IMG/VR virus record: IMGVR_UViG_3300044712_000823
Location: 1 to 64,000 of that record
DNA from: a virus
Taxonomy: Duplodnaviria; Heunggongvirae; Uroviricota; Caudoviricetes
Direction: 5' to 3' (one strand)
Length of the DNA: 64,000 nt
In this document: piece after piece, positions 35,503-48,214 of the stretch
Layout of the letters: each line of letters begins with the position of its first letter
Numbering within the stretch: position 1 is the first letter of the stretch
Notes under the pieces: generated by a model
The model's database searches: none
Seen by the model: the letters and a program-made list of their open reading frames with translations, nothing else
What the model was told of the DNA's origin: nothing
Made by a program: the position numbers and the translations under genes

Positions 35503-35642
35503 TACTATTACTCCACCGAGAGAAGAAAATTAACGAATCGAAACACGACCAATTGCACCAGCAGTGGCATTTGCCAAATAAGTGCAAGAAATCTCATCGC
35601 GCAAATTACCGCTGAGATATTCAACCATATACAACCAACCAT

Positions 35643-35858
35643 TCATACTGCAACTCCTTCAGAAATAGATTCGATTTGTTCGTGGTCAAGGATAATGCGT
35701 TCGCGCACGGCACCGAAAACGGTGATGGGTTTATTCAGAACCACATGATGGGTAACGCGGCCGCCGTAGGTAACGCGGGACAGTTCTACTGTACCAGTCA
35801 CGGTGTACATATTGAGGTACCGACCGGTGACGGAGAGGTTTTCAAGGTTCCATTGCAT
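35643..35858 (-). CDS. Small protein; paralog of 41745..41957.
   Basis: About 50% identity to the second copy. Directly downstream of a promoter cassette. Confidence 0.45.
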   Translation of the reverse strand: MQWNLENLSVTGRYLNMYTVTGTVELSRVTYGGRVTHHVVLNKPITVFGAVRERIILDHEQIESISEGVAV

Positions 35859-35887
35859 TTTGTGTCTTTCGCTGAATCAATGCATGA

Positions 35888-35916
35888 ATTATGGCGGATG
35901 GAAGTGGATCTGGCAA
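35888..35916 (-). promoter_or_regulatory. Sigma70-like early promoter (family copy P1): TTGCCA-17-CATAAT.
   Basis: Minus-strand reading ...TTGCCAgatccacttccatccgcCATAAT. Upstream conserved stem-loop 35932..35950. Confidence 0.55.
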
Positions 35917-35974
35917 TGTGGAGCAATAGTTCTCCAGCACTGCGCTGGAGTTAGAACCTTTTACTTACAAAATC

Positions 35975-36136
35975 CTAGACGATTCCAGCGATTCGGAGCC
36001 ATTGACCAAGGGCCAGCATGAGCCCAAGGATTCCGATGATCCTAGACTGCGGGTTGCTGCCCCATGTGGCAAATACGCCGCCAAAAATTACCAGATAAAC
36101 GATTATCACATAATCGAGCACAAAATATTCTTTCAT
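35975..36136 (-). CDS. Small membrane peptide (53 aa).
   Basis: Hand-translated. ATGA overlap with the upstream ORF. Confidence 0.3.
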   Translation of the reverse strand: MKEYFVLDYVIIVYLVIFGGVFATWGSNPQSRIIGILGLMLALGQWLRIAGIV

Positions 36137-36345
36137 TTAATTTGACCTTCTTGAATCATTTGCTCAAATGTATTGAAAAGAATCTCAAATTTCATTTGAT
36201 ACAATGTCTGAAGTCCAATAAGAATATTCAGCAATTCATCGTGTGACATATCACGAATATCCGTAATTTGTGCGATTGTTTTAATATCATCACAAACACC
36301 CCAGCAATCCATAATTTGCTGTTCAAAAACGAAACGACTATTCAC
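36133..36345 (-). CDS. Hypothetical protein.
   Basis: ORF. Confidence 0.35.
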   Translation of the reverse strand: MNSRFVFEQQIMDCWGVCDDIKTIAQITDIRDMSHDELLNILIGLQTLYQMKFEILFNTFEQMIQEGQIK

Positions 36346-36361
36346 ATTAACCCCTTATTAC

Positions 36362-36405
36362 ATACCAAAGAAAAATGAATGCTGCCCTAAAAGAATGCAG
36401 CATTC
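36362..36405 (-). terminator. Rho-independent terminator (minus strand).
   Basis: GAAUGCUGC...GCAGCAUUC 9-bp stem, then AUUUUUCUUU. Confidence 0.6.
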
Positions 36406-36443
36406 TCTTGAAATAATACACACGATATTTCAGTGCATTCATA

Positions 36444-37331
36444 TTAACCTGCAATAGTATACTCTGCCAAATCTTTCCAGTTTGCACCAGCAGATTTACG
36501 GATTTTGGTGACTTGAATCAGAGTGCGAAGGGACAACTCTTTAACATTATCACGCACAGAATTAATCAAATCAAGGGCGTCTTGTTTGATTTGTTTAGCA
36601 ATCTCGGGCATAAAATCAGGCTGGTCAAGCAGCCATTGCATACGCTCGATTTTCTGCTCCTTATTCATAGACAGGTCAACTGCCATAGAACGGGTGATAA
36701 TCGCTTGGTCAATCTTATCCGAGCCGAGATTCGAAATAAAGATAACACGACCTTTGAATTCAAAAGTAGTGGGCAAATCTTCATCACGAATATCCGCACG
36801 CCAAGAGATAATGCGCTTAGAATAAGAATCCAAAGCACCTTTCAGAAGGTTAAGAGAAATGGGGTCTTTGAGAACCGAATCGCAATCATCAAAAACAATA
36901 ACGCCATCTTTATTCTCATAAAGGGTGCGATACAGACCTTTGGGCGTAGAATAACCCTTGATAATACGATACGATTTTTTAGTATTGAGTTTGTCGCCGA
37001 CTTTGAATTCATCAAGCACGGTAACGTCCTGCATACCATTTTTGACCAATGCATCGGTCACGGTGTGGGATTTACCCAGACCGCCAGGACCGCAGATAAC
37101 CACGGACGCTTGGTCGCCTTTGCAAAGCATGGCAACCATATCCGAAACGAAACCGAATCGCTGGTTAATCGAAAAACGCGAAGGAGCGACGGTCTCTGCC
37201 ACGGGTTCCACGCCGCCAGCCTTCATGGCCTGACGAACCACGTAGTCCATGTGCGCCTTGGACGTGCGCTTGACCAGTTTACCGTTAATCATGGCCTGGT
37301 ACTTACCGTTCACAAATTTGACTTCAATCAT
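36444..37331 (-). CDS. P-loop NTPase (AAA-like ATPase).
   Basis: ICGPGGLGKSH Walker A. VIVFDDCD Walker B. Confidence 0.6.
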   Translation of the reverse strand: MIEVKFVNGKYQAMINGKLVKRTSKAHMDYVVRQAMKAGGVEPVAETVAPSRFSINQRFGFVSDMVAMLCKGDQASVVICGPGGLGKSHTVTDALVKNGMQDVTVLDEFKVGDKLNTKKSYRIIKGYSTPKGLYRTLYENKDGVIVFDDCDSVLKDPISLNLLKGALDSYSKRIISWRADIRDEDLPTTFEFKGRVIFISNLGSDKIDQAIITRSMAVDLSMNKEQKIERMQWLLDQPDFMPEIAKQIKQDALDLINSVRDNVKELSLRTLIQVTKIRKSAGANWKDLAEYTIAG

Positions 37332-37363
37332 CGTTCACTCCGTGTTAATCAATCAATGCATGA

Positions 37364-37392
37364 ATTATGGCGGACGGACGCCAATTTGTCAA
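37364..37392 (-). promoter_or_regulatory. Sigma70 consensus early promoter (family copy P2): TTGACA-17-CATAAT.
   Basis: Minus-strand reading TTGACAaattggcgtccgtccgcCATAAT. Stem-loop 37407..37427 upstream. Confidence 0.6.
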
Positions 37393-37438
37393 TGTGGAGC
37401 AATAGTTCTCCAGTGCCGTGCTGGAGATTGCTAAAGTA

Positions 37439-37627
37439 TTACTTTTTGCTTTCAGTGTTTTTTATAATACGAACACCAAAACCTAGACTCATTTTCAGAA
37501 ATTCAGACCAACATTGTGGACATACTGGTTTATTATCATAAACTGGTGCAGGATGTGTATTATGTGGGGAAAATGCAAATTCAAAACCACATTTCACACA
37601 TTTATATGGTGCAGGCATTATGTACAT
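37439..37627 (-). CDS. Zinc-ribbon small protein.
   Basis: CVKCG...CPQC. Confidence 0.35.
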   Translation of the reverse strand: MYIMPAPYKCVKCGFEFAFSPHNTHPAPVYDNKPVCPQCWSEFLKMSLGFGVRIIKNTESKK

Positions 37628-37760
37628 TATTTCTGTCTTTCACGAATACAGCTATAAATGTCGGACATTTGCTCAGGATTTAGTTTAGTAACAGCAATCC
37701 ATTCTGCGCCATTAGTCCTCATGCACAACCAACCCGTGCCAGAAATTTTATATTCTATAT

Positions 37761-37955
37761 TCATCGCTGCACCATTAGAAGAAACTCTTTATATTCGACT
37801 GCCAAGAATTTGGCGTCATTCGGGTGGCAATACACAATGCCATCAAATACTTGCCAAACATACTCGCGGAAATTATGAAGGCAATAATCAATAAACCCAT
37901 CAATGGGCAGATTATAATCCTCAGCAACATAAACCAAATTAGTTTTGTAAAACAT
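37761..37955 (-). CDS. Hypothetical small protein.
   Basis: Downstream of promoter P3. Confidence 0.35.
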   Translation of the reverse strand: MFYKTNLVYVAEDYNLPIDGFIDYCLHNFREYVWQVFDGIVYCHPNDAKFLAVEYKEFLLMVQR

Positions 37956-37984
37956 ATCAACCTTTCTTTCAATCTATGTGTGGG

Positions 37985-38012
37985 ATTCTACCACGGCTGG
38001 TGGAAATGGCAA
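37985..38012 (-). promoter_or_regulatory. Early promoter family copy P3 (TTGCCA-16-TAGAAT).
   Basis: Minus-strand reading TTGCCAtttccaccagccgtggTAGAAT. Confidence 0.5.
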
Positions 38013-38203
38013 GTGTAGTAAAAAGTTCTCCATCCTGCCGGTCAACTATTCATCATAACCCTTACCAATACCAATATAAATTCCAAACTTAATTAAGTCA
38101 ATTTTAATTGACCACTCATGTTCGCAGTTATGACCAATAAAAATACCCAAATTAATATAATTAGATTCAAACCAGTTGATGCGAAACTTTTCACCACTTC
38201 CCA

Positions 38204-38425
38204 TTATTTGGCTCCGAAATGATTTTTAATTTGAATTGCAGCGTGTTTATAGTAATTGTGATTGCCATTGGTCTTTTCGTGCATATCCAATAGTTTACCA
38301 CAACATTCATCAATAATCAACTCGGCGAATTTCTCCAATTCATAATCATAGAATTGCCAAACTGGTGGAATATGTTTTTTGGTGCCCATGGCGTGCTCGG
38401 CGAGTTCATAAATTCGTTCATTCAT
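38204..38425 (-). CDS. Small paralogous-family protein (MNERIYEL...FAELIIDEC...HFGAK).
   Basis: Family motifs. Confidence 0.5.
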   Translation of the reverse strand: MNERIYELAEHAMGTKKHIPPVWQFYDYELEKFAELIIDECCGKLLDMHEKTNGNHNYYKHAAIQIKNHFGAK

Positions 38426-38570
38426 TTACTTTTATCTTTCGAAAAATCGAATATCATACCTTTGAGAAAACCCTGCTTGAAAGTACCGCTCGGCGCAAAT
38501 AACATATAACCTATAATCAATCCCTGAAACGTACCGAGAAAGTAGAGAAAAGCCATCATAAATGCTTCCA

Positions 38571-38777
38571 TTATTCAACTCCGAAATGTTCTTTTAGATG
38601 ACGTTCTTCAATAATACCAAAACTTTCTACGCCGCGCTGATGCAAATGCATTGCACATTCCTTGATAATCAATTCGGCAAATTCTTGTGGGTCGAAATAA
38701 GTATGCAATTTCAATACATGGAGTGTATTCCTATCTCCACCGGCTTTAAAGAATAGTTCATAAATTCGTTCATTCAT
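38571..38777 (-). CDS. Small paralogous-family protein.
   Basis: N-terminal 34 aa identical to 40961..41188. Confidence 0.5.
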   Translation of the reverse strand: MNERIYELFFKAGGDRNTLHVLKLHTYFDPQEFAELIIKECAMHLHQRGVESFGIIEERHLKEHFGVE

Positions 38778-38952
38778 TTGAATAATCCTTTACTGTGGGA
38801 ATATCTTTCCATTCAGACCATTGCATATTCTTCATAGTATCTGGAAATGGACCATTACCAGCATATACGTTCATATCAATTTGCTGCCTTTGTTGCAATA
38901 CCTTTTCAGGACCATCCCAACCTTGGCGGATAAACCAACGTAATTCAACCAT
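38770..38952 (-). CDS. Hypothetical small protein.
   Basis: ORF. Confidence 0.3.
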   Translation of the reverse strand: MVELRWFIRQGWDGPEKVLQQRQQIDMNVYAGNGPFPDTMKNMQWSEWKDIPTVKDYSNE

Positions 38953-39194
38953 TATTCAACTCCAAAATGTTCTTTGATCTTAACTGCAATGTCTGCCAAG
39001 TAGTAATATAACGTGCCTTCATCATGTAACTCACTGCCTTCGCTGTGTATATGAGCAATGTTAGCACATTCCTTGACAATCAACTCTGCAAACTTTTGCT
39101 CAAATGTGCGAATATATGAAACGCCGTGAGTTTCACATTCTTTATGTGCGTAGTTTTGCGCCTGTTCGGACAATTCTTTTATCCGTTCATTCAT
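38952..39194 (-). CDS. Small paralogous-family protein.
   Basis: FAELIVKEC...HFGVE. Confidence 0.5.
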   Translation of the reverse strand: MNERIKELSEQAQNYAHKECETHGVSYIRTFEQKFAELIVKECANIAHIHSEGSELHDEGTLYYYLADIAVKIKEHFGVE

Positions 39195-39200
39195 ATTATA

Positions 39201-39494
39201 TCACCACGCCAAAGCAAAAGCATAGAAACCGTTGGTATTATCACCTCCAGTTTCAATATGAACCCGCCGATTGCCACAATCACAACGGCGATTCCCGACT
39301 TGCCAGCCTGCACATTCTATATCATTTTCACCCAAATAATCATTGCAGTTTTGACCGTCAAATTCGACAAAATCATCGCCAGATTGTGCAATAAATGCAT
39401 CAATAGCTTCTTGCTGCGTTTTGTAATTCATTATATCACATACTCCAATAAGTTTCAGACGCGGGATTGCAACACCATGGAGTATCCTCGGCAA
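39201..39494 (-). CDS. Hypothetical Cys-rich small protein.
   Basis: ORF. Start uncertain. Confidence 0.3.
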   Translation of the reverse strand: MPRILHGVAIPRLKLIGVCDIMNYKTQQEAIDAFIAQSGDDFVEFDGQNCNDYLGENDIECAGWQVGNRRCDCGNRRVHIETGGDNTNGFYAFALAW

Positions 39495-39684
39495 TGAGAA
39501 TATACTCCTGGGACATTAGATTCCGCACCAGTTTCATACCTTCAACGGGATTTTGTTTCTGCCACTCCCACAGGTCATCAATCTTATTGAAAATGGGACC
39601 GAAAGTAATTCCAGTCACATTATCAACACATTGCCAGCCGCCAGCAACCGAAAGACACGCAAGATCAATCGCGTTAGCACTCAT
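39436..39684 (-). CDS. Hypothetical small protein.
   Basis: Start set at the internal Met after the upstream stop. Confidence 0.3.
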   Translation of the reverse strand: MSANAIDLACLSVAGGWQCVDNVTGITFGPIFNKIDDLWEWQKQNPVEGMKLVRNLMSQEYILIAEDTPWCCNPASETYWSM

Positions 39685-39720
39685 TATATTCTCCAAAAGT
39701 TTCACCAAGTTAACGACCAC

Positions 39721-39915
39721 TCACATACTGCAAAGATTATCCATCTCATTAATGAAAATGAGATATGCCGAACTCATCATACAGGACAATTCACCTGCTT
39801 TATATTCAGTTTCCAGTTTCTCAATGCAATCTAGCATAGAGTTTGCGCCAATGTCAGTGCCATATGCCATGACCAAATCAATTGCTTCGCGGGTCGTCAT
39901 AATCGTTTCATTCAT
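39721..39915 (-). CDS. Hypothetical small protein.
   Basis: ORF. Confidence 0.3.
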   Translation of the reverse strand: MNETIMTTREAIDLVMAYGTDIGANSMLDCIEKLETEYKAGELSCMMSSAYLIFINEMDNLCSM

Positions 39916-40124
39916 TCTTCAACTCCAAAATGTTTACGTGCAACAAATTGAACATGCCAGCCTTTCATAGGCCCATCTTCATTAGCACCAACCCAAGGAC
40001 ATACTTCAGGGAGAAACTGTTCATATTCACGAATAATCAATTCTGCAAATCGCACGGCATCAAAACCAGTTTCAGATTCACACCGCTGCATCATTTCAAG
40101 AATAACGCCATTCGTTTCAATCAT
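39912..40124 (-). CDS. Small paralogous-family protein.
   Basis: FAELIIREY...HFGVEE. Confidence 0.45.
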   Translation of the reverse strand: MIETNGVILEMMQRCESETGFDAVRFAELIIREYEQFLPEVCPWVGANEDGPMKGWHVQFVARKHFGVEE

Positions 40125-40142
40125 TTATTCAATTCCAAAATG

Positions 40143-40349
40143 TTATTTGATACCAAATTCGAACATAATTTCGTCGGCAATATCCTCATAATCCTCAACA
40201 GATACGCCTTTATTCGAACCGAAATAAGAATAACCTTCCATTTCTCGGGTATAACCATGAATAATGGAAATAATACGGTCACGAATAGCCTTTTCCTTAT
40301 CAGAAATCTCAGTATATTCGGGAATATGAGAATACCAACGAGCAGACAT
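40143..40349 (-). CDS. Hypothetical small acidic protein.
   Basis: Ends FEFGIK. Confidence 0.35.
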   Translation of the reverse strand: MSARWYSHIPEYTEISDKEKAIRDRIISIIHGYTREMEGYSYFGSNKGVSVEDYEDIADEIMFEFGIK

Positions 40350-40363
40350 AACATTACCTCCAA

Positions 40364-40645
40364 TTACCGACGATAAACTGCAAAAGTAACTGCATCACTT
40401 TTCAGACAGGTAGAATGAGCATTAATCACGGAGTAATTAATACCACGGATAATACCTGCTTTAGTTTGAACACGATACCGACTTTCACCTTTATTATAAC
40501 GATGAGAACGGGGACCACGATAACGCACCTTAATTTTAACGCCGTCAATTGCAAACAGGCGTTTAATCTCATCAAGATATTGCATGGGGATACCATGCAT
40601 AATGGACTGACGATCAGAACCAGACTTATATTGTAGAATGTGCAT
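40364..40645 (-). CDS. Basic small protein (possible nucleic-acid binding).
   Basis: K/R-rich. Downstream of P4. Confidence 0.4.
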   Translation of the reverse strand: MHILQYKSGSDRQSIMHGIPMQYLDEIKRLFAIDGVKIKVRYRGPRSHRYNKGESRYRVQTKAGIIRGINYSVINAHSTCLKSDAVTFAVYRR

Positions 40646-40681
40646 TTTCTTTTTCCAATCAATTACCGAACCAATAAAGAC

Positions 40682-40709
40682 AGTATAACAGAACCAGGGG
40701 AAATGGCAA
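40682..40709 (-). promoter_or_regulatory. Early promoter family copy P4 (TTGCCA-16-TATACT).
   Basis: Minus-strand reading TTGCCAtttcccctggttctgtTATACT. Confidence 0.5.
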
Positions 40710-40755
40710 TGTAGATCGGAAGTAGTCCATCCGTCCGGTCAAGTTCTCGGCAGGT

Positions 40756-40983
40756 TCATTCTTCAACTCCAAAATATGTGTATACTGCTTCTTCCATACT
40801 GGGACCAAATTGCATTCCTGCTCTTGCGACTATCAAAGTTTCTTTGATAATCAACTCGGCGAATTTACTTTCAAATGCTTGAATATATGAAACACCATAT
40901 TTGTCGTTTTGTTCATGTGCATAGTTTTGTGCATCATAAGAAAGTTTTTTAATTAGTTCTTCATTCATTTTCTTCAATTCCAA
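40756..40983 (-). CDS. Small paralogous-family protein.
   Basis: FAELIIKE...YFGVEE. Confidence 0.45.
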   Translation of the reverse strand: MELKKMNEELIKKLSYDAQNYAHEQNDKYGVSYIQAFESKFAELIIKETLIVARAGMQFGPSMEEAVYTYFGVEE

Positions 40984-41188
40984 ACTCTTTTTCCATACTC
41001 AAACAAACCTCACGGGCTTGATTTCGTGTCAGTTCCTTGTGGGGATATTTGTAAACAAAGTCGGAACATTCTTTGATAATCAAATTGGCGAATTCTTGTG
41101 GGTCGAAATAAGTATGCAATTTCAATACATGGAGTGTATTCCTATCTCCACCAGCCTTAAAGAATAGTTCATAAATTCGTTCATTCAT
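40961..41188 (-). CDS. Small paralogous-family protein.
   Basis: About 100 bp near-identical to 38680–38777. Confidence 0.5.
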   Translation of the reverse strand: MNERIYELFFKAGGDRNTLHVLKLHTYFDPQEFANLIIKECSDFVYKYPHKELTRNQAREVCLSMEKEFGIEENE

Positions 41189-41191
41189 TGT

Positions 41192-41728
41192 TTAAACTCC
41201 GATATACTTAGATGCTTCAGCATGAAGACCACGGTCGCCTTTTGTCATAACTTCGAGGAGAAGCCTTTTCTCGGCGAGATAAGTCTTGGCAAACCCAGGA
41301 TCATACTGCATAATAGATTTACTATTAGAGATAAGATCAGCAAGTTTAATTGTCTGAGCTTCAGCAGGTGCATCCGCAGTATGAGCACGATCAATTGCTT
41401 TACGGTGTGCCCTATTACCGTCTTCAGGGCGACTTACATCAGTGAGCCAACCAACAAGGCGAGCAATATCAATACCAAACGCCATATGAATATCATTAAA
41501 TGTGCAACCAGTATCTTCGACAACATCATGGAGCCATGCAGCAGCAACCATCTCATGCGTAGAACCAGGAACAGAAGCCACAATACTAGCCACCTCAGCA
41601 GGGTGAACAATATAAGATTCACCTGTATATTTACGCTTTTGACCGACAGCAGCATGAGCCGCCATTGCATATACTTGCGCCTTTTGTACAATATCCATAC
41701 CAGTAAGTTCCATTGTAAAGCATTGCAT
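41192..41728 (-). CDS. HD-domain (p)ppGpp hydrolase (SpoT/Mesh1-like small alarmone hydrolase). Start uncertain.
   Basis: YIVHPAEVA...AAWLHDVVEDTG matches the RelA/SpoT HD motif. Confidence 0.65.
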   Translation of the reverse strand: MQCFTMELTGMDIVQKAQVYAMAAHAAVGQKRKYTGESYIVHPAEVASIVASVPGSTHEMVAAAWLHDVVEDTGCTFNDIHMAFGIDIARLVGWLTDVSRPEDGNRAHRKAIDRAHTADAPAEAQTIKLADLISNSKSIMQYDPGFAKTYLAEKRLLLEVMTKGDRGLHAEASKYIGV

Positions 41729-41744
41729 GATTACTCCTTATTCC

Positions 41745-41957
41745 TTATTCCGTATTATCCGCAACAAAATCAATCTCGGTATGACTCAGAATCACCCGTT
41801 CCCGCATTGCACCAAATACCTCAATAGGGTTATCCAGAACTACGGTGTGTTTAATATCACCACCATATGCAATGCGAGACAATTCTACAGTACCAGACAC
41901 AATAAACCTGTTCAGATACTTACCACGAACAAACATATTTTCAAGAACCCAACTCAT
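41745..41957 (-). CDS. Small protein; paralog of 35643..35858.
   Basis: Paralogy. Confidence 0.45.
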   Translation of the reverse strand: MSWVLENMFVRGKYLNRFIVSGTVELSRIAYGGDIKHTVVLDNPIEVFGAMRERVILSHTEIDFVADNTE

Positions 41958-42109
41958 TCTATATCCTCCAGAGATTGAATTTGAATGTCCAATTCTTCAG
42001 AGGACATATTAACCAAATCAGCGATAAAACCAACAAATTGGTCATTATCACCAATGCCAATATGCATCATTTTATCAATAATATAAACAATCTTTTCCGC
42101 ACAATTCAT
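41954..42109 (-). CDS. Small protein (51 aa).
   Basis: Start reset downstream of the P5 transcription start. AGGAG-7-ATG. Confidence 0.35.
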   Translation of the reverse strand: MNCAEKIVYIIDKMMHIGIGDNDQFVGFIADLVNMSSEELDIQIQSLEDIE

Positions 42110-42134
42110 ACAAAATCTCCTAATCAATGAAGAC

Positions 42135-42163
42135 AGTATAACAGAACGTAAGGAGAATGGCAA
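42135..42163 (-). promoter_or_regulatory. Early promoter family copy P5 (TTGCCA-17-TATACT).
   Basis: Minus-strand reading TTGCCAttctccttacgttctgtTATACT. Confidence 0.5.
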
Positions 42164-42546
42164 TGTAGAGCAATAGTAGTCCATAGAAGAGGTCAACTAT
42201 TGTCCAGTGTATGGGAATGCATGGGGAAGAACCAGGAATGGAATAGGAGATGATTGAAACCAAAGGTAGTAACCAGTGTAGCAAGAACCATGCGTGGATT
42301 GAAAATGAAAGTGCTATTTATTGCGTGCCTACCGTGCGTTGTCGCGGGACCTGTCGCAGGTATGGTGTAGCACCTTAGTCTTAGTTGCTGTCTGCGAGCC
42401 AGGTTTTTCCTCAACCAGCCACTCTATCACAATCCACAGCGGTTGGCAATAGGTTTCCTCTCAGAACCTCAGAGAACCATAGAGCCAGGCTATAGCATAG
42501 TGGATTTCCGACCAATAGCAAAGTAAATTTTCTTTCACCCAGCTGG

Positions 42547-42576
42547 TTGCCAAACACCAGTGCCATGTGATATAAT
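42547..42576 (+). promoter_or_regulatory. Early promoter family copy P6 (TTGCCA-18-TGaTATAAT), plus strand. Points into an ORF-poor region.
   Basis: TTGCCAaacaccagtgccatgtgaTATAAT. Confidence 0.45.
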
Positions 42577-42682
42577 GGACCAAACGTCTTCCGCTGGCGG
42601 TAGTACCTTAGTGTTACACGGTATATAACGTGCAGCCTCCACGTCCATCCCCGTGTATTGCCGTTCGAATCATTGTAGTGGA

Positions 42683-42709
42683 TTATACCAGAACCGAACG
42701 GACTGGCAA
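42683..42709 (-). promoter_or_regulatory. Early promoter family copy P7 (TTGCCA-16-TATAAT), minus strand. Points into the ORF-poor region 42.2–42.65 kb.
   Basis: Minus-strand reading TTGCCAgtccgttcggttctggTATAAT. Confidence 0.5.
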
Positions 42710-42744
42710 GTAGAGCAAAAGTTCTCTACCTGCCAGGTGGGTCA

Positions 42745-42969
42745 TTAGTCTAGCAGGACCATGTACTCCGCTGGGAAGTGGGTGCGGAACCAGTCCAGAC
42801 CCTTGCGGACGGTCTTGTAGTCTCCGAACATCTCCGAGCCACGGATGGTGTCATACACTGCCACGGCGTCAGGAGGTAGGGTCACCGACTCACCAGAGAA
42901 GGGATTGGACACCAGCACCGGTGCATCGTCCAGGATTTTGCAGGGAAAGGGAAGGGTGCGAACGTTCAT
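42745..42969 (-). CDS. Hypothetical protein (GC-rich island).
   Basis: AGGAG RBS. GC-rich codon usage. Confidence 0.45.
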   Translation of the reverse strand: MNVRTLPFPCKILDDAPVLVSNPFSGESVTLPPDAVAVYDTIRGSEMFGDYKTVRKGLDWFRTHFPAEYMVLLD

Positions 42970-42980
42970 ATTTTACTCCT

Positions 42981-43508
42981 TTATTGAACCACGTTGAAAG
43001 GACCTTTGCGGTCATATTTTTTGGTGAAGAATGCCTCCACCTTGTCAGCGGTAGGACGGAATGCCTCAGCCTTGCCACCGTACCAGCCTTCGAAGCCACC
43101 ACGGTCAGGACGCGCCACGATGGTGAAGTCCTCATACTTGAGCTTGACCTTCTTGGGAGCCTTCGGTGCTTTGGGTGCCTTGGGCTCCTTGGCCACCTTT
43201 GCAGGCTTGGTTGTCGGTTTTGCCACCGAGGGCGTTTCCGGGACAGCCTGAGGTTGGACCTGACCTTTGAGGTGAGGCATGATGGCTTGGAGCCGCTCCA
43301 CGTTGGATTGTGCATACTTGACCAGGTCCTCACCGGTCAGCCCTTTGGACGTACCTTGTACAATGTAGTCGGCGAACAGGTGAGCCTCAGCCTTGTCCTT
43401 CGGTTTGACACCGACGGACTTTGCAATGCGGAAGTGGTCGGCAGGCTTCAGGGTTTTGAGGTACTTGACCAGCTGGTCGGCAGAGGTGAAGGTGGTTTGG
43501 ATTTCCAT
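42981..43508 (-). CDS. Hypothetical protein with KAPKAPKAPK linker.
   Basis: Start at MEIQ, downstream of the P8 transcription start. Lys/Ala/Pro-rich linker. Confidence 0.45.
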   Translation of the reverse strand: MEIQTTFTSADQLVKYLKTLKPADHFRIAKSVGVKPKDKAEAHLFADYIVQGTSKGLTGEDLVKYAQSNVERLQAIMPHLKGQVQPQAVPETPSVAKPTTKPAKVAKEPKAPKAPKAPKKVKLKYEDFTIVARPDRGGFEGWYGGKAEAFRPTADKVEAFFTKKYDRKGPFNVVQ

Positions 43509-43531
43509 GTGAGTTACTTTCGAATGAGTCA

Positions 43532-43560
43532 ATTATACCAGAATTTTCAAGCCGTGGCAA
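43532..43560 (-). promoter_or_regulatory. Early promoter family copy P8 (TTGCCA-17-TATAAT).
   Basis: Minus-strand reading TTGCCAcggcttgaaaattctggTATAAT. Confidence 0.5.
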
Positions 43561-44200
43561 CCGTCAGGCGGATAATTTTCGCCATCTTACGACCGTGGGC
43601 GGGGTAGCCGATGACCGCCACGGACTTATCGTAGCAGGTACGGCAGGTCAGGCACTTGCCACCTTGGTTGTATGCTGGGCAGACGGAAACACCACCGGGC
43701 GCGTTTTCCGCGTCGGGAATGATGGTAGAGCCATGCACGCCAGGCGTATAGGAACCATCCACGGCATCGGAAGAGAACCGAACCATTACATTGTCCAGCC
43801 GTTGCATGGCTGCAATGATGGGGGCAAACTTGGGGAATTTTGCCATGCGGGTGGGCAGCCAATGCTTGGTGTTGGGCGTACGGACCATCACCTGGTAGAT
43901 TTTGGTTGCCAATTCCAGGGAGTACATATCCCCCGAATCGAACCAACGGAAGTGGGTGTCCTTGCTCAATTGAGCCACCATGGCGTCAACCCAGCCGTCC
44001 TCTTGCCATGCGGCTTTATTGTCAGCACGGACAGCCTTGACGGCGCCGAAGTGGTACATGCCCGTGGTGGCGTAGCAACCAGAGCAGGCCGCAACCAGTT
44101 GGCCGTCCTTGCCAACCGAACCGGGGCAGGTCTCAATGGCTTGGAGGGACCAGGACTTGGTGCCTAGCTTGGAGGTCTTGGAGAGTTTGTTTTTCATCAT
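43547..44200 (-). CDS. Cys-rich metal-binding protein.
   Basis: Two Cys clusters (CPGS...CSGCY and CPAYNQGGKCLTCRTCY). Confidence 0.45.
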   Translation of the reverse strand: MMKNKLSKTSKLGTKSWSLQAIETCPGSVGKDGQLVAACSGCYATTGMYHFGAVKAVRADNKAAWQEDGWVDAMVAQLSKDTHFRWFDSGDMYSLELATKIYQVMVRTPNTKHWLPTRMAKFPKFAPIIAAMQRLDNVMVRFSSDAVDGSYTPGVHGSTIIPDAENAPGGVSVCPAYNQGGKCLTCRTCYDKSVAVIGYPAHGRKMAKIIRLTVATA

Positions 44201-44247
44201 GTGGTGTATTCTACAGGTTTCCTAGGTTCTGTCAACCAGTCCTTGGA

Positions 44248-44553
44248 TTAGTTGACCGGATTGGTGGGTTTCACCGTCACCGTCCAGCTGGAGAAGGAGA
44301 GACCGACCATGGTGTAACCATGGGCTGCCAGTGCCTTGATTAGGCGCTTGGCGATAATGTTAGCCATGGCGTTCTCCGCTTCGGTGCGGTTGATTGACGG
44401 CTCATGCAGGTGCATATCACCGGCATCCTCGCAGGTGAAAGGTACAACCAGCACCTCGCCCTGGTAGGCGTCCTTGTACGGCTTAGCCGCTTTGAAAAGA
44501 ATTGCGTTTTTCATGTGATGGAGTATACCACAACCGAAGGGAATGGCAACCAA
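44248..44553 (-). CDS. Hypothetical protein. May start at 44514 (MKNAILF).
   Basis: Two tandem upstream promoters (P9, P10). Confidence 0.4.
   Translation of the reverse strand: MVAIPFGCGILHHMKNAILFKAAKPYKDAYQGEVLVVPFTCEDAGDMHLHEPSINRTEAENAMANIIAKRLIKALAAHGYTMVGLSFSSWTVTVKPTNPVN
44522..44549 (-). promoter_or_regulatory. Early promoter family copy P9 (TTGCCA-16-TATACT).
   Basis: Minus-strand reading TTGCCAttcccttcggttgtggTATACT. Confidence 0.45.
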
Positions 44554-44648
44554 CCGATCATTGGAATTTCCTATTGATCCTGCGGACCCATAGTTGCGGT
44601 TCTAACGCCCAGCCTCCACGTCCATCCCAGTGCCTTTCGAATGGTCCT

Positions 44649-44676
44649 ATTATACCAGAACCGAGGACCCCGGCAA
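44649..44676 (-). promoter_or_regulatory. Early promoter family copy P10 (TTGCCG-16-TATAAT).
   Basis: Minus-strand reading TTGCCGgggtcctcggttctggTATAAT. Confidence 0.45.
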
Positions 44677-44716
44677 CCAATACCCTACCGCTCCGCTGGA
44701 GAACTATAGTTCTACA

Positions 44717-44744
44717 TTGCCATTTCCTCCGGTTCTGTCATAAT
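44717..44744 (+). promoter_or_regulatory. Early promoter family copy P11 (TTGCCA-16-CATAAT).
   Basis: TTGCCAtttcctccggttctgtCATAAT. ATG 8 nt downstream (leaderless). Confidence 0.5.
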
Positions 44745-44751
44745 CCACTCC

Positions 44752-44949
44752 ATGATGAATAGCAAAACAAAACCCTATACCGAATCCGTTGCAACCCGTC
44801 TCCCCGCTGGCCTGACCAGTGAAAAGGACCTGTGGACTGAAATCTACAAAATCGTGGAAGCCGACCTCGGCAAGAAAAGAGCATTCTACATGATGAACTA
44901 CAGTGAGGACTTCTTTCCTGATGTAATGCACGACTACAAATACCTGTAA
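44752..44949 (+). CDS. Small protein (65 aa); likely leaderless mRNA.
   Basis: Starts ~8 nt after the -10 of P11. Confidence 0.4.
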   Translation: MMNSKTKPYTESVATRLPAGLTSEKDLWTEIYKIVEADLGKKRAFYMMNYSEDFFPDVMHDYKYL

Positions 44950-44974
44950 ACTCTTGAAAACGAAAGGTTACAAA

Positions 44975-45187
44975 ATGAATCGCATTAGCCAAAATGGTTG
45001 GACTCTCCGCCGCTCCAACAACCAGCCGGTGCTGGTGAATCAGGCAGCCATAAGCTTCCGTGGTGACATAGCCACCATTGTGGGTGGACGCCCTCCTACC
45101 CACTTTGGTTCAACCGGTAGGGTCTGGACCAAGGCTGGTGGGGAATACTTCCCTTCGGTCTTTGACCTTGAGTGGGTGAAAGACTAA
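44975..45187 (+). CDS. Small protein (70 aa).
   Basis: AAAGG-8-ATG. The ORF track extends to a TTG at 44954. Confidence 0.4.
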   Translation: MNRISQNGWTLRRSNNQPVLVNQAAISFRGDIATIVGGRPPTHFGSTGRVWTKAGGEYFPSVFDLEWVKD

Positions 45188-45215
45188 CCAATCCGGTCAA
45201 CTATCCGACGGATGG

Positions 45216-45243
45216 TTGCCAAATCCTCCAGACCTGTCATAAT
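45216..45243 (+). promoter_or_regulatory. Early promoter family copy P13 (TTGCCA-16-CATAAT).
   Basis: GGTTGCCAaatcctccagacctgtCATAATCC. Almost identical to P14 and P15. Confidence 0.55.
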
Positions 45244-45281
45244 CCATTCCATAGTAAATCAACAAAGCAAAGGAAACAAAA

Positions 45282-45509
45282 ATGTCTCAAGGCTACAATG
45301 GCTGGACCAACCGCGAAACCTGGTTGGTTAACGTTTGGTTCAATCCGGAATCCCGTGAGGATGTGGAGGATGCACGGTCCATCCTGGAGGAACAATATGA
45401 TTCCATGACCGATGGTCCCCTGAAGGACATGGTTGCCCTGTCCGAGGTGGACTGGGACCAGCTGCTGGAACACTTCGAAGAGGAAGAGGATGAGGAGGAC
45501 GAGGAATGA
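45282..45509 (+). CDS. Small acidic protein with poly-Glu/Asp C-terminal tail. Candidate DNA-mimic-like early protein.
   Basis: NGWTNRETWLVNVW N-terminus. C-terminus EEEEDEEDEE. AAAGGAAAC RBS. Confidence 0.45.
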   Translation: MSQGYNGWTNRETWLVNVWFNPESREDVEDARSILEEQYDSMTDGPLKDMVALSEVDWDQLLEHFEEEEDEEDEE

Positions 45510-45718
45510 GCGTAGTCCGTAACCGGTTGCCCGGTTCAACCGGGTCCATAACCGAGCATTGGACCTCGGAATCACCGCAAGCCATCCAGGACCTGTTCCA
45601 GCAGGAGGTGACCAACTATCCTACAGGTGGTTATGGCACCATGCTCACCGGCATCCATGCCGATCCGACCGGTCTCCTATGGCATGCCAGGTTCTATCGC
45701 ATGGCATCTTGCGATTGA
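45506..45718 (+). CDS. Small protein (70 aa).
   Basis: ATGA overlap with the upstream gene. Confidence 0.4.
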   Translation: MSVVRNRLPGSTGSITEHWTSESPQAIQDLFQQEVTNYPTGGYGTMLTGIHADPTGLLWHARFYRMASCD

Positions 45719-45738
45719 AAATTCCAATGGCAACATTC

Positions 45739-45766
45739 TTGCCATTTCCTCCAGCCCTGTCATAAT
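45739..45766 (+). promoter_or_regulatory. Early promoter family copy P12.
   Basis: TTGCCAtttcctccagccctgtCATAAT. Confidence 0.5.
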
Positions 45767-45803
45767 CCATTCCATAGTAAATCAACCGCTGAAAGGAAAG
45801 CAG

Positions 45804-45998
45804 ATGAGTGTAATCGACAACCTGATTCTGGACATCCAGAAGGACATTACCGAAGGTCGCCTGACCTTCCGTGAAATCGCCGACCTGCGCGGCATCCCGT
45901 TTGACTGGGTGGATATGGTTGCTCTGGAGATGGCTCGCCAAGGTGAGGATGATCCGGAATACCTGGACTCTGACGCATACCTGGAGACGCTGGAATGA
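45804..45998 (+). CDS. Small acidic protein (64 aa).
   Basis: AAAGGAAAG RBS. The ORF track start at 45627 runs through promoter P12. Confidence 0.4.
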   Translation: MSVIDNLILDIQKDITEGRLTFREIADLRGIPFDWVDMVALEMARQGEDDPEYLDSDAYLETLE

Positions 45999-46156
45999 AC
46001 CGCTACACCTTGATCCTTTCCAACGGTCGGATCATGGTTTTCTCGGTGCTGGCCTGCGCTGAGGTCTTCCAGCAGGCCCACGGTGGAACGCTGGTAACCC
46101 AGCAAACCGGTCAAGAATCCAAGGAACAGTTGCCAAATCTTCCAGTCCTGTCATAA
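45995..46156 (+). CDS. Small hydrophobic protein (53 aa); reads through promoter P14.
   Basis: ATGA overlap. Hand-translated. Confidence 0.25.
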   Translation: MNRYTLILSNGRIMVFSVLACAEVFQQAHGGTLVTQQTGQESKEQLPNLPVLS

Positions 46157-46157
46157 T
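46130..46157 (+). promoter_or_regulatory. Early promoter family copy P14.
   Basis: TTGCCAaatcttccagtcctgtCATAAT. Confidence 0.5.
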
Positions 46158-46189
46158 CCATTCCATAGTAAATCACTGAGGACGACCAA

Positions 46190-46450
46190 ATGCTCAAAAT
46201 GATCTGGAATGACAAATCCCTCCTGACCATGACCGGCATCGCCGTGGCTCTGGTTGTGGCTGCCGTGGCTGCAACCATTTACAATGGCAACCAGTGGAAG
46301 GAATTCAGCCAGGAACATGAGTGCAAGGTGGTTGCCAAGCATGCCGGTACCACTGGCTATGGTATGACCAGCACCGGTAAGATGGGCATGGTCACCACTT
46401 CCGCAACCACTTCCTACCTTTGCAACGATGGTGTGACCTATACCCGTTAA
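46190..46450 (+). CDS. Small membrane protein (86 aa).
   Basis: One TM helix. RBS GAGGA. Confidence 0.45.
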   Translation: MLKMIWNDKSLLTMTGIAVALVVAAVAATIYNGNQWKEFSQEHECKVVAKHAGTTGYGMTSTGKMGMVTTSATTSYLCNDGVTYTR

Positions 46451-46481
46451 CCCAGACTTCCGGTCAACTATTCCCAGATGG

Positions 46482-46509
46482 TTGCCAAATCCTCCAGACC
46501 TGTCATAAT
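46482..46509 (+). promoter_or_regulatory. Early promoter family copy P15.
   Basis: TTGCCAaatcctccagacctgtCATAAT. Confidence 0.55.
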
Positions 46510-46546
46510 CCATTCCATGATGAAAAACGAAACGAAAGGAAACCAG

Positions 46547-46813
46547 ATGACTTACACCCCCGCCCAAGCGGCTGCCCTCCGTCACGCTGAAGTGACCCTG
46601 ACTCGCATGGCTCAGGAAGCCGCCCTCCGCTACGCCGAGGCTCTGGTCAAGTACCATGCCACCCGTCGCTTCGAAAAGTCTGAGGTGGCCTCTGAGCGCC
46701 AGATGGCACGGGATGCATGGACCATGGTCCTCATCACTGCTGAGGATGTGAACCAAGCCGCTGAGTGCCAGGCTCAGCTCACCGGCAACCAAATTGTGAA
46801 GGAGCTTGCATAA
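46547..46813 (+). CDS. Small alpha-helical protein (88 aa). Alternative leaderless start at 46517.
   Basis: AAAGGAAACCAG-ATG. Confidence 0.4.
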   Translation: MTYTPAQAAALRHAEVTLTRMAQEAALRYAEALVKYHATRRFEKSEVASERQMARDAWTMVLITAEDVNQAAECQAQLTGNQIVKELA

Positions 46814-46896
46814 TGAAAACTTTCGCAGTAGAACTGATCCAGGCAGCCATCCTGGCCACCCTTTTCTTCGGTCCCCTCTTCCTCTACATCCTCTGA
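46813..46896 (+). CDS. Hydrophobic micro-protein (27 aa).
   Basis: GAAGGAG-8-ATG. Single TM. Confidence 0.3.
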   Translation: MKTFAVELIQAAILATLFFGPLFLYIL

Positions 46897-46907
46897 AAGG
46901 TACTACC

Positions 46908-47117
46908 ATGGCAGCAACAGTCATTCCGGTTAAGGTCACGGACCGTAGGGTCCAGGAGCAATATGTGGTGGATGGTGCTCTGGTTACAATTTGCAAGCCA
47001 GCCAAGGCTCGGAAGTCGGAGAGGACTTGGAGAGGTGGCAGTAAGTGGTCAGTGGCTGGCTTGGGTGGTAAGGCACTGAGCCTGCGGAATGGCGGGCTGG
47101 CTAAGGCTAAAGGCTAA
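46908..47117 (+). CDS. Small basic protein (69 aa).
   Basis: GAAAGG-7-ATG. Confidence 0.4.
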   Translation: MAATVIPVKVTDRRVQEQYVVDGALVTICKPAKARKSERTWRGGSKWSVAGLGGKALSLRNGGLAKAKG

Positions 47118-47131
47118 GCCTAACACATTGG

Positions 47132-47160
47132 TACTAAAATTTGGACGGCAGTGTCCAAAA
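47132..47160 (-). terminator. Putative minus-strand terminator.
   Basis: UUGGAC-N6-GUCCAA hairpin followed by AUUUUAG. Confidence 0.35.
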
Positions 47161-47260
47161 ATTAAACCAATGTAAGTAATTTTCGCCTATGGCCCAAACT
47201 CGATTTTTCTGTTTTTTATTTTCTGGGGCCAAAACGCATTTTTCGAAATTTAGCACACCT

Positions 47261-47749
47261 CTAAATTTTTTCTCCGGACTCCAGCAGGTTTTCGAATTTT
47301 CCTGGAGGACTCTCCTGCGTATACTTTACATTGTTTAGCACGGGTCTGCCGTTCTCTGTCTTTCTGCACCACGGTATGTCTGTACGTACCACATAGGTCC
47401 ACTTATTGTAGTGCTGCATGAAGCTAATCATGTGCTGCGTACCTCTGGACTCTCCATCCCAAAATGCAATGAGTCCGTCTGCATAGACACCCATCTCTGC
47501 ATTCCGCATAGGACCCGCTTTCTTACCGTGGCGCTTCCAGTCGGCAGGAAAGAGCTTGACTGGAATGTTGCGCTCCTCTGCCCAACGTTCACCCAAGGAG
47601 TCAGCGCCTGCTGCACGGCCAGAAACAACCTCAGTAATGTGCAACCACGGTGGTATCGTTGCAAGGTAAGCCCTCAAATAATCATAATCATTAAAATCTC
47701 TGGATCCTGCAATGATTACTCTGCTCCGGCTGCTGCTTCTGCTGCTCAT
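47261..47749 (-). CDS. SLOG-superfamily (DprA/LOG-like) Rossmann nucleotide-binding protein.
   Basis: IIAGSRDF...VVSGRAAGAD...WDGESRGT motifs. Confidence 0.45.
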   Translation of the reverse strand: MSSRSSSRSRVIIAGSRDFNDYDYLRAYLATIPPWLHITEVVSGRAAGADSLGERWAEERNIPVKLFPADWKRHGKKAGPMRNAEMGVYADGLIAFWDGESRGTQHMISFMQHYNKWTYVVRTDIPWCRKTENGRPVLNNVKYTQESPPGKFENLLESGEKI

Positions 47750-47943
47750 TCTGGAATCATTCCCTGTGACTTAGCATAATAATAAATTGCGATACCGATG
47801 AGGTACAACACAACCTGCATCCAAAGACCGCGTGGGTTACCCCAGCTTCGGATGTTCCAAAGTACCCAAAGCATACCCAGTGCGAAACTGAATAGGTTTA
47901 GATGGAACGGGGAAATCGTCAGGAAATTCTCTAGTGTGTACAT
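47746..47943 (-). CDS. Small membrane protein.
   Basis: Two TM helices. Confidence 0.35.
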   Translation of the reverse strand: MYTLENFLTISPFHLNLFSFALGMLWVLWNIRSWGNPRGLWMQVVLYLIGIAIYYYAKSQGMIPE

Positions 47944-48034
47944 AGTCTCGGAGGCGCGGGGAGCGGGGAGTTCGCTCCGCTCAAAACTGTTAGTTAAGTT
48001 TCGCTAGTATAACACACAGGATGGAAAAGGCAAG

Positions 48035-48214
48035 TTACTTCTTGCGTTTCTTCGGTTTCTCTACGGATGCAATTGCTTCTCGGACTTCTTCTAGTAGCTT
48101 TTCGTCATCCCAGATAAGTTCTGTCTTACCGTTTTCGTGGGTAACTACGGTGAGGTGGTTACCCTTATTAATGATAGGATATTGTGCTGGTGCAGCTTTA
48201 GGTTTTTTGGGCAT
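48035..48214 (-). CDS. Small basic protein (59 aa).
   Basis: Start set at MPKKPK. Confidence 0.3.
   Translation of the reverse strand: MPKKPKAAPAQYPIINKGNHLTVVTHENGKTELIWDDEKLLEEVREAIASVEKPKKRKK

Follow-up and report, generated by a model that had tools for sequence, protein, structure and literature searches.

A dense family of sigma70-like promoter cassettes in the variable region of a T4-like phage genome

The stretch of DNA analysed here comprises positions 1 to 64,000 of the IMG/VR virus record IMGVR_UViG_3300044712_000823 (hereafter the window, 64,000 nucleotides), and it contains about 17 copies of one host-type promoter cassette standing before small variable genes. The sequence architecture of these copies, their statistics, their intergenic position and orientation, their confinement to the variable region and their conservation as a class across a clade of related phages were observed directly. 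With a probability of about 0.7, we interpret the copies as early promoters for host RNA polymerase carrying the primary, sigma70-type sigma factor, which would act as reusable cassettes of the variable region and would be the counterpart of the promoter-early stem-loop (PeSL) cassettes of other T4-like phages.

Architecture of the promoter family

The copies were retrieved with a relaxed search (TTG[AC]C[AG], 15-18 nucleotides (nt) and then a -10-like hexamer), which gave 16 matches on both strands at positions 35888-46509 (P1-P16, Table 1). The strict pattern TTGCCR-N15-18-ATAAT was matched 10 times against 0.61 expected, and none of 100 dinucleotide-preserving shuffles reached 10. This bears out the preliminary description of the region, which had reported at least 15 repeated sigma70-like promoters at 35880-46520. 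The same sites were ranked top by an independent scan with the sigma70 consensus, with 10-11 of the 12 consensus positions and a spacing of 16-18 nt. TTGCCA is found instead of TTGACA in 13 of the 16 copies and TG precedes the -10 (extended -10) in 12 of them, the consensus being TTGCCA, a 16-17 nt spacer, TGn(T/C)ATAAT and CCAYTCCAT. Alignment of the family on the -10 gave TTGCCA /.ttCct.c.gttCTG. / tATAAT / ccAttccaT. The information content was 10.5 bits for the -35, 9.4 bits for the spacer, 7.8 bits for the -10 and 9.4 bits for the downstream 25 nt.

A weight-matrix scan, proposed in the same description, was carried out on the 64 kb window. The family matrix exceeded 12 bits only at 31.5-46.5 kb, block-shuffled sequence giving 0.45 such matches on average, and one copy (P0) was added beyond the range described before. 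A marginal copy (P17) and a decayed copy were also located. Leave-one-out matrix scores ranged from 13.6 to 47.7 bits, whereas the best score per shuffle had a mean of 11.0 and a peak of 17.2; P2, P6, P9 and P11 are therefore borderline as family members, each of them still matching the sigma70 consensus at 10-11 of 12 positions. Other canonical sigma70-like promoters are present elsewhere in the window.

All copies are intergenic, and 13 of the 16 face an open reading frame (ORF) starting 7-38 nt past the -10, in agreement with the earlier statement that the copies are oriented to the downstream ORF. A protein-coding repeat was ruled out as the origin of the motif, since the only protein match, between ORFs 45627-45998 and 46478-46813, is an artefact of the extension of these ORFs through the cassette. 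Shared flanking sequences had also been reported. Those of P1 and P2 (caatgcatgaattatggcgga, present twice, at 35878 and 37354) and of P4 and P5 (gacagtataacagaac, present twice, at 40679 and 42132) were recovered, whereas CCATTCCATAGTAAATCA, assigned before to four copies, is present at three (45244, 45767 and 46158), a variant of it, CCAYTCCATGATGAA, being found at two further copies (44745 and 46510).

Upstream of the core, two modules recur. U1 (GGAGAACT-www-GYTCTACA) abuts the -35 in P1-P5, P7 and P12. U2 (CCGGTCAACTAT...GG) is found in P9, P13, P15 and P16, and its inverted form lies farther upstream in P3-P5. U2 pairs with the -35 region, as at 45195-45220, where 11 base pairs including TTGCC are formed, and the -35 is the 3' arm of a hairpin in P0, P7, P9, P13, P14 and P16. 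Folding of the 56 nt ending with the -35 in 17 copies gave a mean z of -1.48, against -0.54 (standard deviation 1.22) at 40 control sites. In 9 of these 17 copies a single hairpin of -11 kcal/mol or stronger either ends within about 20 nt upstream of the -35 or overlaps it, place and sequence varying from copy to copy. PolyG/polyC stems were not found at the cassettes. Two other readings of the upstream sequences were rejected. The spacing of a sigma54 promoter (TGGCAA-N5-TTGCC) fits P14 alone, and was therefore taken as chance; U2, which contains TTGACC on one of its strands, was considered as a divergent or tandem -35 and dismissed for want of a suitably spaced -10.

Downstream of the core, CCAYTCCAT spans the discriminator and the predicted start, and an A is located 8 nt past the -10 in most copies. 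An ATG without Shine-Dalgarno sequence lies exactly 7 nt past the -10 in P9, P10, P12 and P16, that is, in 4 of the 16 copies against a chance of about 1 in 64 per site. As this ATG coincides with the predicted +1, leaderless mRNAs are predicted for these four cassettes. P13-P15 have ATA at the same place and a Shine-Dalgarno-led start about 30 nt further, and the same placement of the ATG was observed in relatives (L001:720, L012:7107, L017:12519, L018:5809 and L026:3566; the loci are introduced below). A leader of 23-38 nt separates the -10 from the start codon in nine copies, seven of which (not P1 and P8) contain a Shine-Dalgarno-like motif. Three copies lack an ORF: nothing was recognized after P6, and a non-coding element comes after both P7 and P11. 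The proteins encoded after P12-P16 have no detectable mutual similarity. This indicates that the repeat unit is the cassette and not a duplicated gene, and rules out a tandem gene-plus-promoter duplication for P12-P16.

The element that follows P7 and P11 consists of AUUCGAA, a short variable hairpin and GGGAUG(G/C)AC(R)(Y)GGAG(G/C)CUG, its invariant tail being GGAC(R)(Y)GGAG(S)CUG. In the structure obtained with RNAalifold, AUUC and GGAU pair and enclose an inner stem, modelled with two base pairs, which covaries (GC, AU and CG types). A covariance model recovered 30 copies at E <=1e-5 in 26 sources, 11 of them outside the seed alignment, with one or two copies per locus (loci including L001, L004, L008, L013, L018, L023, L062, L103 and L109). 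In the loci fetched with the anchor protein (see below), the element always lies on the strand of NrdC.10 and several kb upstream of it. The model-fitted alignment had 96.6% of its cells paired and contained 28 double-change cells, against 8.1 +/- 3.0 in shuffled and 0-2 in slid controls, and the variable positions are not third-codon positions. The element is absent from Rfam, a permissive scan of 42000-44800 giving only a spurious CRISPR-repeat match. A bacterial origin was discarded after a search of 185,579 bacterial and archaeal species genomes, in which a single match was obtained, on an 8.9 kb contig of a metagenome-assembled genome.

The promoters P6 and P7 are convergent (42547-42709) and their predicted starts are about 92 nt apart, so that sense and antisense transcripts would overlap fully across copy 2 of the RNA element. 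A convergent promoter about 90 nt downstream of the element, in the same relative place, was found in the window and in L023, L062, L116 and L117. In L101, L105 and L106, clusters of TTATCCACA-type DnaA boxes lie within about 100 nt past the element, which hints at an origin-like region. No such cluster was found near the RNA element of the window, where 26 one-mismatch boxes were counted against 22 expected, none of them at 41.9-51.5 kb. One may speculate that the element is an antitermination leader, a replication primer or part of a sense-antisense pair.

Table 1. Promoter cassettes and associated features of the window (aa, amino acids; SD, Shine-Dalgarno sequence)
Feature	Position	Strand	First base of -35	Core	Downstream	Other observations
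P0	31548..31575	-		TTGCCT-16-TATAAT with TG	conserved 732 aa gene, 29330-31528	matrix score 24.8 bits; hairpin GGCAACC-gcaac-GGTTGCC with the -35 as 3' arm; orthologous promoter in L031 at 5283
P1	35888..35916	-	35916	TTGCCA-17-CATAAT	ATG 35858 (71 aa)	hairpin ctccagc-gcagt-gctggag upstream, 35932-35950
P2	37364..37392	-	37392	TTGACA-17-CATAAT	SD GGAG, ATG 37331 (NrdC.10-like, 295 aa)	hairpin upstream, 37408-37426
P3	37985..38012	-	38012	TTGCCA-16-TAGAAT with TG	ATG 37955 (64 aa)	
P4	40682..40709	-	40709	TTGCCA-16-TATACT with TG	ATG 40645 (93 aa)	core and flank common to P5 and P12
P5	42135..42163	-	42163	TTGCCA-17-TATACT with TG	SD GGAG, ATG 42109 (51 aa)	left edge of the GC-rich island
P6	42547..42576	+	42547	TTGCCA-18-TATAAT with TG	no ORF	convergent with P7
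P7	42682..42709	-	42709	TTGCCA-16-TATAAT with TG	RNA element copy 2	13 bp hairpin 42703-42736, -21.6 kcal/mol, with the -35 as 3' arm
P8	43532..43560	-	43560	TTGCCA-17-TATAAT with TG	ATG 43508 (175 aa)	
P9	44208..44235	-	44235	TTGACA-16-TAGAAT	ATG 44200, 7 nt past the -10; predicted leaderless GP88-like gene	hairpin GGTCAAC...GTTGAC at 44230-44257
P10	44522..44549	-	44549	TTGCCA-16-TATACT with TG	predicted leaderless ATG 44514 (88 aa)	
P11	44649..44676	-	44676	TTGCCG-16-TATAAT with TG	RNA element copy 1	divergent with P12
P12	44717..44744	+	44717	TTGCCA-16-CATAAT with TG	predicted leaderless ATG 44752 (65 aa)	
P13	45216..45243	+	45216	TTGCCA-16-CATAAT with TG	SD-led ATG 45282	hairpin 45195-45220, -35 in the 3' arm
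P14	45739..45766	+	45739	TTGCCA-16-CATAAT with TG	SD-led ATG 45804	palindrome TGGCAA-cattc-TTGCCA, 45728-45744
P15	46130..46157	+	46130	TTGCCA-16-CATAAT with TG	SD-led ATG 46190	stop codon of the upstream ORF inside the -10
P16	46482..46509	+	46482	TTGCCA-16-CATAAT with TG	predicted leaderless ATG 46517; second, in-frame SD-led ATG 46547	hairpin 46462-46486
P17 (marginal)	48006..48033	-		TTGCCT-16-TATACT with TG	ATG 47943	right edge of the GC-rich island; family matrix below 12 bits
Decayed copy	42421..42449	-		TTGCCA-17-TAGAGT with TG		within the non-coding stretch 42200-42745
RNA element copy 2	42623..42674	-				after P7; covariance model R1, 59.8 bits
RNA element copy 1	44600..44646	-				after P11; covariance model R1, 57.4 bits
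GC-rich island	42200..48050					52-58% G+C; contains P6-P16

Distribution across the clade and traces of exchange

The proteins of the window place the genome among the T4-like myophages, and the earlier assignment to a T4-type phage is supported by several of them: an NrdC.10-type AAA protein (36444-37331, 295 aa) with about 1,300 matches in T4-like phages, a cyanomyophage-type 725 aa 'peptidase' present in 464 phage records (mostly cyanomyophages), a ribonucleotide reductase and a CbbQ/NirQ-type AAA+ ATPase. Megablast of positions 35000-47000 against GenBank phages gave no nucleotide match, and neither did a scan of IMG/VR for the exact pattern of the P12-16 cassette. Identical genes were present only on short Logan contigs of run SRR26046407, and the SLOG-domain protein had no match on record. 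Related loci (about 100, labelled L001 etc.) were fetched from IMG/VR and metagenome records by means of the anchor protein, which is 57-84% identical in them, the nearest relative reaching 84% amino-acid identity; some of these loci lie on contigs of 169-177 kb, and an NrdC.10 homologue is present in 99 of them. As far as the record names can be read, many carry lake-type sample identifiers. The source appears to be an uncultured freshwater T4-like phage, and its host group is probably the Betaproteobacteria, as judged from a phage-borne transfer-messenger RNA (tmRNA).

The gene for this tmRNA lies at 10158-10529 on the minus strand and was the sole match in an Rfam scan of the window at gathering thresholds (beta_tmRNA, 136 bits; the permuted-tmRNA model also matches). 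It encodes the tag peptide ANDEKFALAA and has its own promoter, TTGCCA-17-TATACT, at 10508-10536.

The region that contains the cassettes is hyperplastic. For the majority of its small ORFs, neither a homologue among the 100 related loci nor a PHROG family was found, and searches of these ORFs against PHROGs and Pfam gave almost no matches. Location in a variable region and adjacency to ORFan genes, both part of the PeSL definition, are found in the window.

Every related locus with enough sequence has its own promoter set near the NrdC.10 homologue. U1- and U2-like modules recur upstream in these sets, and modules such as ccattccatagt and attgattgattaggag recur downstream. Spacer identity was 0.42 within genomes and 0.31 between genomes, a contrast that none of 300 label permutations reached and that base composition may have inflated. 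Mean spacer identity was 0.45 in the window and 0.60-0.70 in four relatives, L021 having 17-20 near-identical copies with a mean of 0.70. The family of the window is therefore intermediate for the clade and not, as had been thought, unusually well conserved. Neither was the suggestion of a recent spread supported, such a spread being indistinguishable from ongoing gene conversion and from a common site for a regulator. In L021, the promoter pattern was matched 17 times at 2316-11841, and most of these matches are near-identical (TTGACA aaataccgattattcga TATAAT acttccatactga).

Sequence sharing among the cassettes is mosaic: one upstream module is common to P1, P5 and P12, another to P9 and P13, and the leaderless downstream module to P9, P12 and P16. 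Over 35-47 nt, P13-P16 are at least 95% identical, spacer positions without known contact included, and P1 and P2 agree at 89% over 63 nt. In other phages, cassettes with 88-97% identity over 29-52 nt stand before genes that are unrelated. P12 and a cassette of L032 have 90% identity over 52 nt, the gene after the L032 cassette being unrelated and Shine-Dalgarno-led, and the corresponding values are 96.6% over 29 nt for P10 and L071, and 88.6% over 35 nt for P13 and L018. The P2 cassette is kept before the orthologous gene in L030, L031 and L032 (92-94% over 35-39 nt). Orthologues of the GP88-like gene (43547-44200) are 70-77% identical and have a different, Shine-Dalgarno-led cassette. This GP88/DUF7227-like gene is inverted relative to the NrdC.10 homologue in comparison with L002, L004, L008, L010 and L036, and stands on the other side of the divergent promoter pair.

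The comparison of synteny with relatives, which the preliminary description had suggested, gave a modest result, with no relative close enough for base-level junctions. In all locus pairs, 24.7% of the internal homology breakpoints near a gene boundary are found at most 60 nt from a promoter; for locus-matched gene junctions the figure is 17.7 +/- 1.8% (maximum 22.7% in 500 draws). This enrichment, about 1.4-fold, is confounded by the relatedness of the loci and by the greater length of intergenic spacers at promoters. When random positions served as the reference, the shares were 23.4% for breakpoints and 7.0% for the reference. P11 and P7, each a promoter plus the RNA element, flank a 2 kb segment with the relocated GP88-like gene, an arrangement that may be the signature of the integration of a circle by a single crossover. 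From run SRR26046407, two Logan contigs match the window without differences, L029 (41160-45240, 100%) and L119 (about 35300-37374). They end inside the cassettes P13 and P2 and inside the repeated small-gene family, so that assemblies break at these repeats. Taken as a whole, the evidence for mobility of the cassettes is circumstantial.

The GC-rich island (5.9 kb, 42.2-48.05 kb) stands out in a genome of about 38% G+C. Three transcription units lie in it, and it is bracketed by P5 and P17, two cassettes of the same strand. The left junction of the island is also present in the separately assembled L029, and its right edge is spanned by L118, another Logan contig of the same run. A 74 aa gene of the island (42745-42969) has 58% G+C, whereas its orthologues in relatives, about 75% identical, have a mean of about 40%, which suggests import from a relative of higher G+C content. 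GC-rich patches of smaller size are also seen at P1 and P2. The products of the paralogous genes 35643-35858 and 41745-41957 are 57% identical, with 50% and 40% G+C in the genes, the GC-rich one lying directly behind P1. A family of at least five paralogous proteins of about 70-80 aa (MNERIYEL...FAELIIKEC...) is encoded at 38204-41188 and also at 33047-33307; the N-terminal 42 aa of members 38571-38777 and 40961-41188 are 95% identical. This family has many copies in relatives, about a dozen in L032 for example, and no Pfam or PHROG match. In the intergenic spacer between convergent gene blocks (47117-47261), which contains a terminator-like hairpin (47140-47159, minus strand), 40-95 nt are conserved in L004 (90% identity) and L018 (77%) despite different flanking genes.

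Cassette function and competing explanations

In the mechanism that we propose, a cassette would consist of an optional upstream stem-loop (U1, abutting the -35, or U2, pairing with it), the -35 TTGCCA, the 16-17 nt spacer leading to the extended -10 TGn(T/C)ATAAT, and the CCAYTCCAT start region. Its output would be one of three: an ATG at +1 (leaderless), a leader of 23-38 nt, or a short structured non-coding RNA (P7 and P11). Each cassette would express one small gene or gene run independently, and the stem-loops may damp read-through from upstream. Because near-identity among cassettes extends over 30-60 nt, the phage recombination system could cross over between them; such crossovers would homogenize the cassettes within a genome, and would move, invert, delete or import the genes between them. 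A bolder version of the proposal, which we regard as possible but doubtful, sees the cassettes as portable expression adaptors with three interchangeable outputs, letting a phage of about 38% G+C import and at once express a 5.9 kb block of about 55% G+C by crossover inside cassettes. The P7/P11 subfamily would then start an undescribed structured RNA, conserved at the head of a long early transcription unit across the clade, which could act like a put or nut element on read-through of the many intergenic stem-loops, or could prime replication.

Several observations weigh against the interpretation as PeSL-type early promoter cassettes. We infer promoter activity and early timing from the consensus alone, and stem-loop attenuation and the recombination role of the cassettes are likewise predictions. 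The stem-loops differ in place, length and sequence, and at P4, P6 and P8 none rises above background. Terminators made of a hairpin and a T-tract were not found at the cassettes, the 15 kb region having 9 terminator-like sites against 13.7 expected, and the AT-rich upstream stretch is absent (the 25 nt upstream have an A+T of 0.53, the surrounding 600 nt one of 0.52). P0 and P2 are orthologous promoters inherited with their gene. As no relative closer than 84% amino-acid identity in the anchor gene was found, recombination junctions of the window genome could not be mapped base by base. The possible composition effect on the spacer contrast and the confounded breakpoint enrichment belong here too, and the conserved spacer and start region could also reflect the binding site of a regulator.

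This last point opens the way to an explanation in which the promoters form a co-regulated set that is not mobile: the spacer, CCAYTCCAT and U1/U2 would bind a phage or host regulator (an early shut-off repressor, for instance, or an activator adjoining the -35), selection on binding would keep the copies alike, and recombination would be incidental. The spacer and start region, with 9.4 bits each, are conserved beyond the sigma70 contacts, sequence conservation across the clade is also seen in U2 (CCGGTCAAC) and in the 5' half of U1 (GGAGAACT), which lie at -36 to -55, a typical zone of contact for activators or the alpha subunit, and genome-specific spacer families would fit co-evolution with a genome-specific protein. 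However, the spacer differs among subfamilies of one genome (P1/P2, P4/P5 and P12-16), so that no single regulator site is conserved across all copies; mosaic modules and near-identical cassettes before unrelated genes are not predicted by selection on binding alone, and no candidate regulator was identified. We consider this explanation unlikely, co-regulation and mobility of the cassettes not being mutually exclusive.

Less probable still are ordinary, vertically inherited sigma70-type promoters without any role in shuffling, whose likeness would stem from the consensus and a few recent local tandem duplications. Such inheritance is what P2 and P0 display, conserved as they are with orthologous genes; P13-P16 are adjacent, as local duplication would have it, and other canonical sigma70-like promoters occur across the window. 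Against this, the genes after P12-P16 lack detectable similarity, the identity of P13-P16 extends to non-contact spacer positions, near-identical cassettes have unrelated flanks in different phages, homology breakpoints are enriched at cassettes and compositional boundaries coincide with them. Recognition by a phage-modified polymerase (a middle mode of the MotA/AsiA type or a phage sigma factor) is very improbable. TTGCCA in 13 of 16 copies and the conserved positions outside the hexamers could mean another mode of recognition, but the hexamer lies 16-17 nt from the -10, which is the position of the sigma70 -35. MotA boxes of T4 are placed about 12 nt from the -10; no such box (TGCTT-like, near -30) was found at the cassettes, where the hexamer TTGCCA/TTGACA is 16-18 nt from the -10. 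The tmRNA gene and other genes of the window also use TTGCCA/TTGACA-N17-TATAAT, and no MotA, AsiA or sigma homologue was found among the selected ORFs of the window that were scanned.

Relation to known systems

PeSL cassettes are composite elements of the hyperplastic regions of T4-like phages, with an AT-rich stretch, a sigma70-like promoter, a stem-loop, and a Shine-Dalgarno sequence and start codon; the stem-loop, located upstream, in the spacer or over the -35/-10, terminates transcription, and recombination between cassettes yields indels and mini-circles (PMC2839356, PMC4122927). The correspondence claimed in the preliminary description holds for the promoter core, the hyperplastic location and the link with ORFans, is partial and ambiguous for the stem-loops, the Shine-Dalgarno/start codon and the breakpoints, and fails for the AT-rich upstream stretch and the T-tracts. 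In RB49 and phi1, promoter and terminator activity and mini-circles were demonstrated experimentally (Arbiol et al. 2010, PMC2839356), whereas the cassettes of the window are known from sequence alone. Both sets are repeated intergenic near-consensus sigma70 promoters, in the window only some of them with a stem-loop able to overlap the -35, placed in hyperplastic regions with small ORFan genes and, less clearly for the window, at sites where related genomes differ, and the same mechanism, homologous recombination between cassettes, is proposed for both. Unlike those of RB49 and phi1, the cassettes of the window have no polyG/polyC stems, T-tract terminators or AT-rich upstream stretches; their -35 is TTGCCA and the extended -10 is nearly universal, four of them are predicted to be leaderless, and two precede a non-coding RNA. 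Since their sequences are unrelated to published PeSLs, they are analogues and not homologues.

The pairs T4/PST and KVP40/nt-1 (Comeau et al. 2014, PMC4122927) also have a lineage-specific consensus of promoter and stem-loop. In nt-1, one PeSL precedes each of several consecutive ORFs (PMC4122927), as in P12-P16, density peaks in the most variable segments, and decayed 'half' copies occur in these phages (PMC4122927), comparable to the one at 42421-42449. Those pairs are close relatives whose junctions were mapped base by base, whereas the nearest relative of the window is 84% identical in the anchor gene; host group (probably Betaproteobacteria here) and clade (freshwater, with cyanomyophage-like core genes) are also different. 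The related T4-like branch of the cyanomyophage S-PM2 has an ORFan block, the 'ORFanage', suspected to be imported from freshwater phages (Puxty et al. 2015, PMC4503421). With one host-like early promoter and few stem-loops in S-PM2, its authors judged the PeSL mechanism unlikely (PMC4503421); the clade of the window differs by its high cassette density. Lambdoid morons and integron cassettes are likewise small, independently expressed units between existing genes, but moron insertion is independent of conserved flanks, and integrons use a site-specific integrase, attC and one common promoter (as discussed in PMC2839356). In the window, each unit has a conserved promoter and no recombinase is implicated. 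The cI gene of lambda, when transcribed from PRM, gives a leaderless mRNA with the AUG at its 5' end, 7-8 nt past the -10 and without Shine-Dalgarno sequence. There it is a single regulatory special case, whereas in the window the predicted leaderless start is a recurring variant of the cassette, with ATG or ATA at the same position.

To our knowledge, earlier descriptions of PeSL cassettes are limited to T4-like phages of enterobacteria and Vibrio. The interpretation as PeSL-type sigma70 early promoter cassettes in a T4-like phage is, in our opinion, right in kind, every functional step being a prediction. The density observed here extends the PeSL phenomenon to a T4-like branch with cyanomyophage-like core genes, and the predicted leaderless variants, the GC-rich island bracketed by cassettes and the conserved RNA element are new details. 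The cassette repeats explain why assemblies break at these sites, and for metagenomic T4-like contigs the consensus offers a practical guide to the annotation of variable regions and early genes. Knowledge of early gene expression in such phages would be extended a little by the predicted leaderless variants and the promoter-proximal RNA. Because a compositionally foreign gene block is flanked by cassettes, this genome is a natural test case. A dense, clade-wide set in uncultured freshwater T4-like phages would mean that T4-like variable regions are generally built with promoter cassettes as linkers for recombination.

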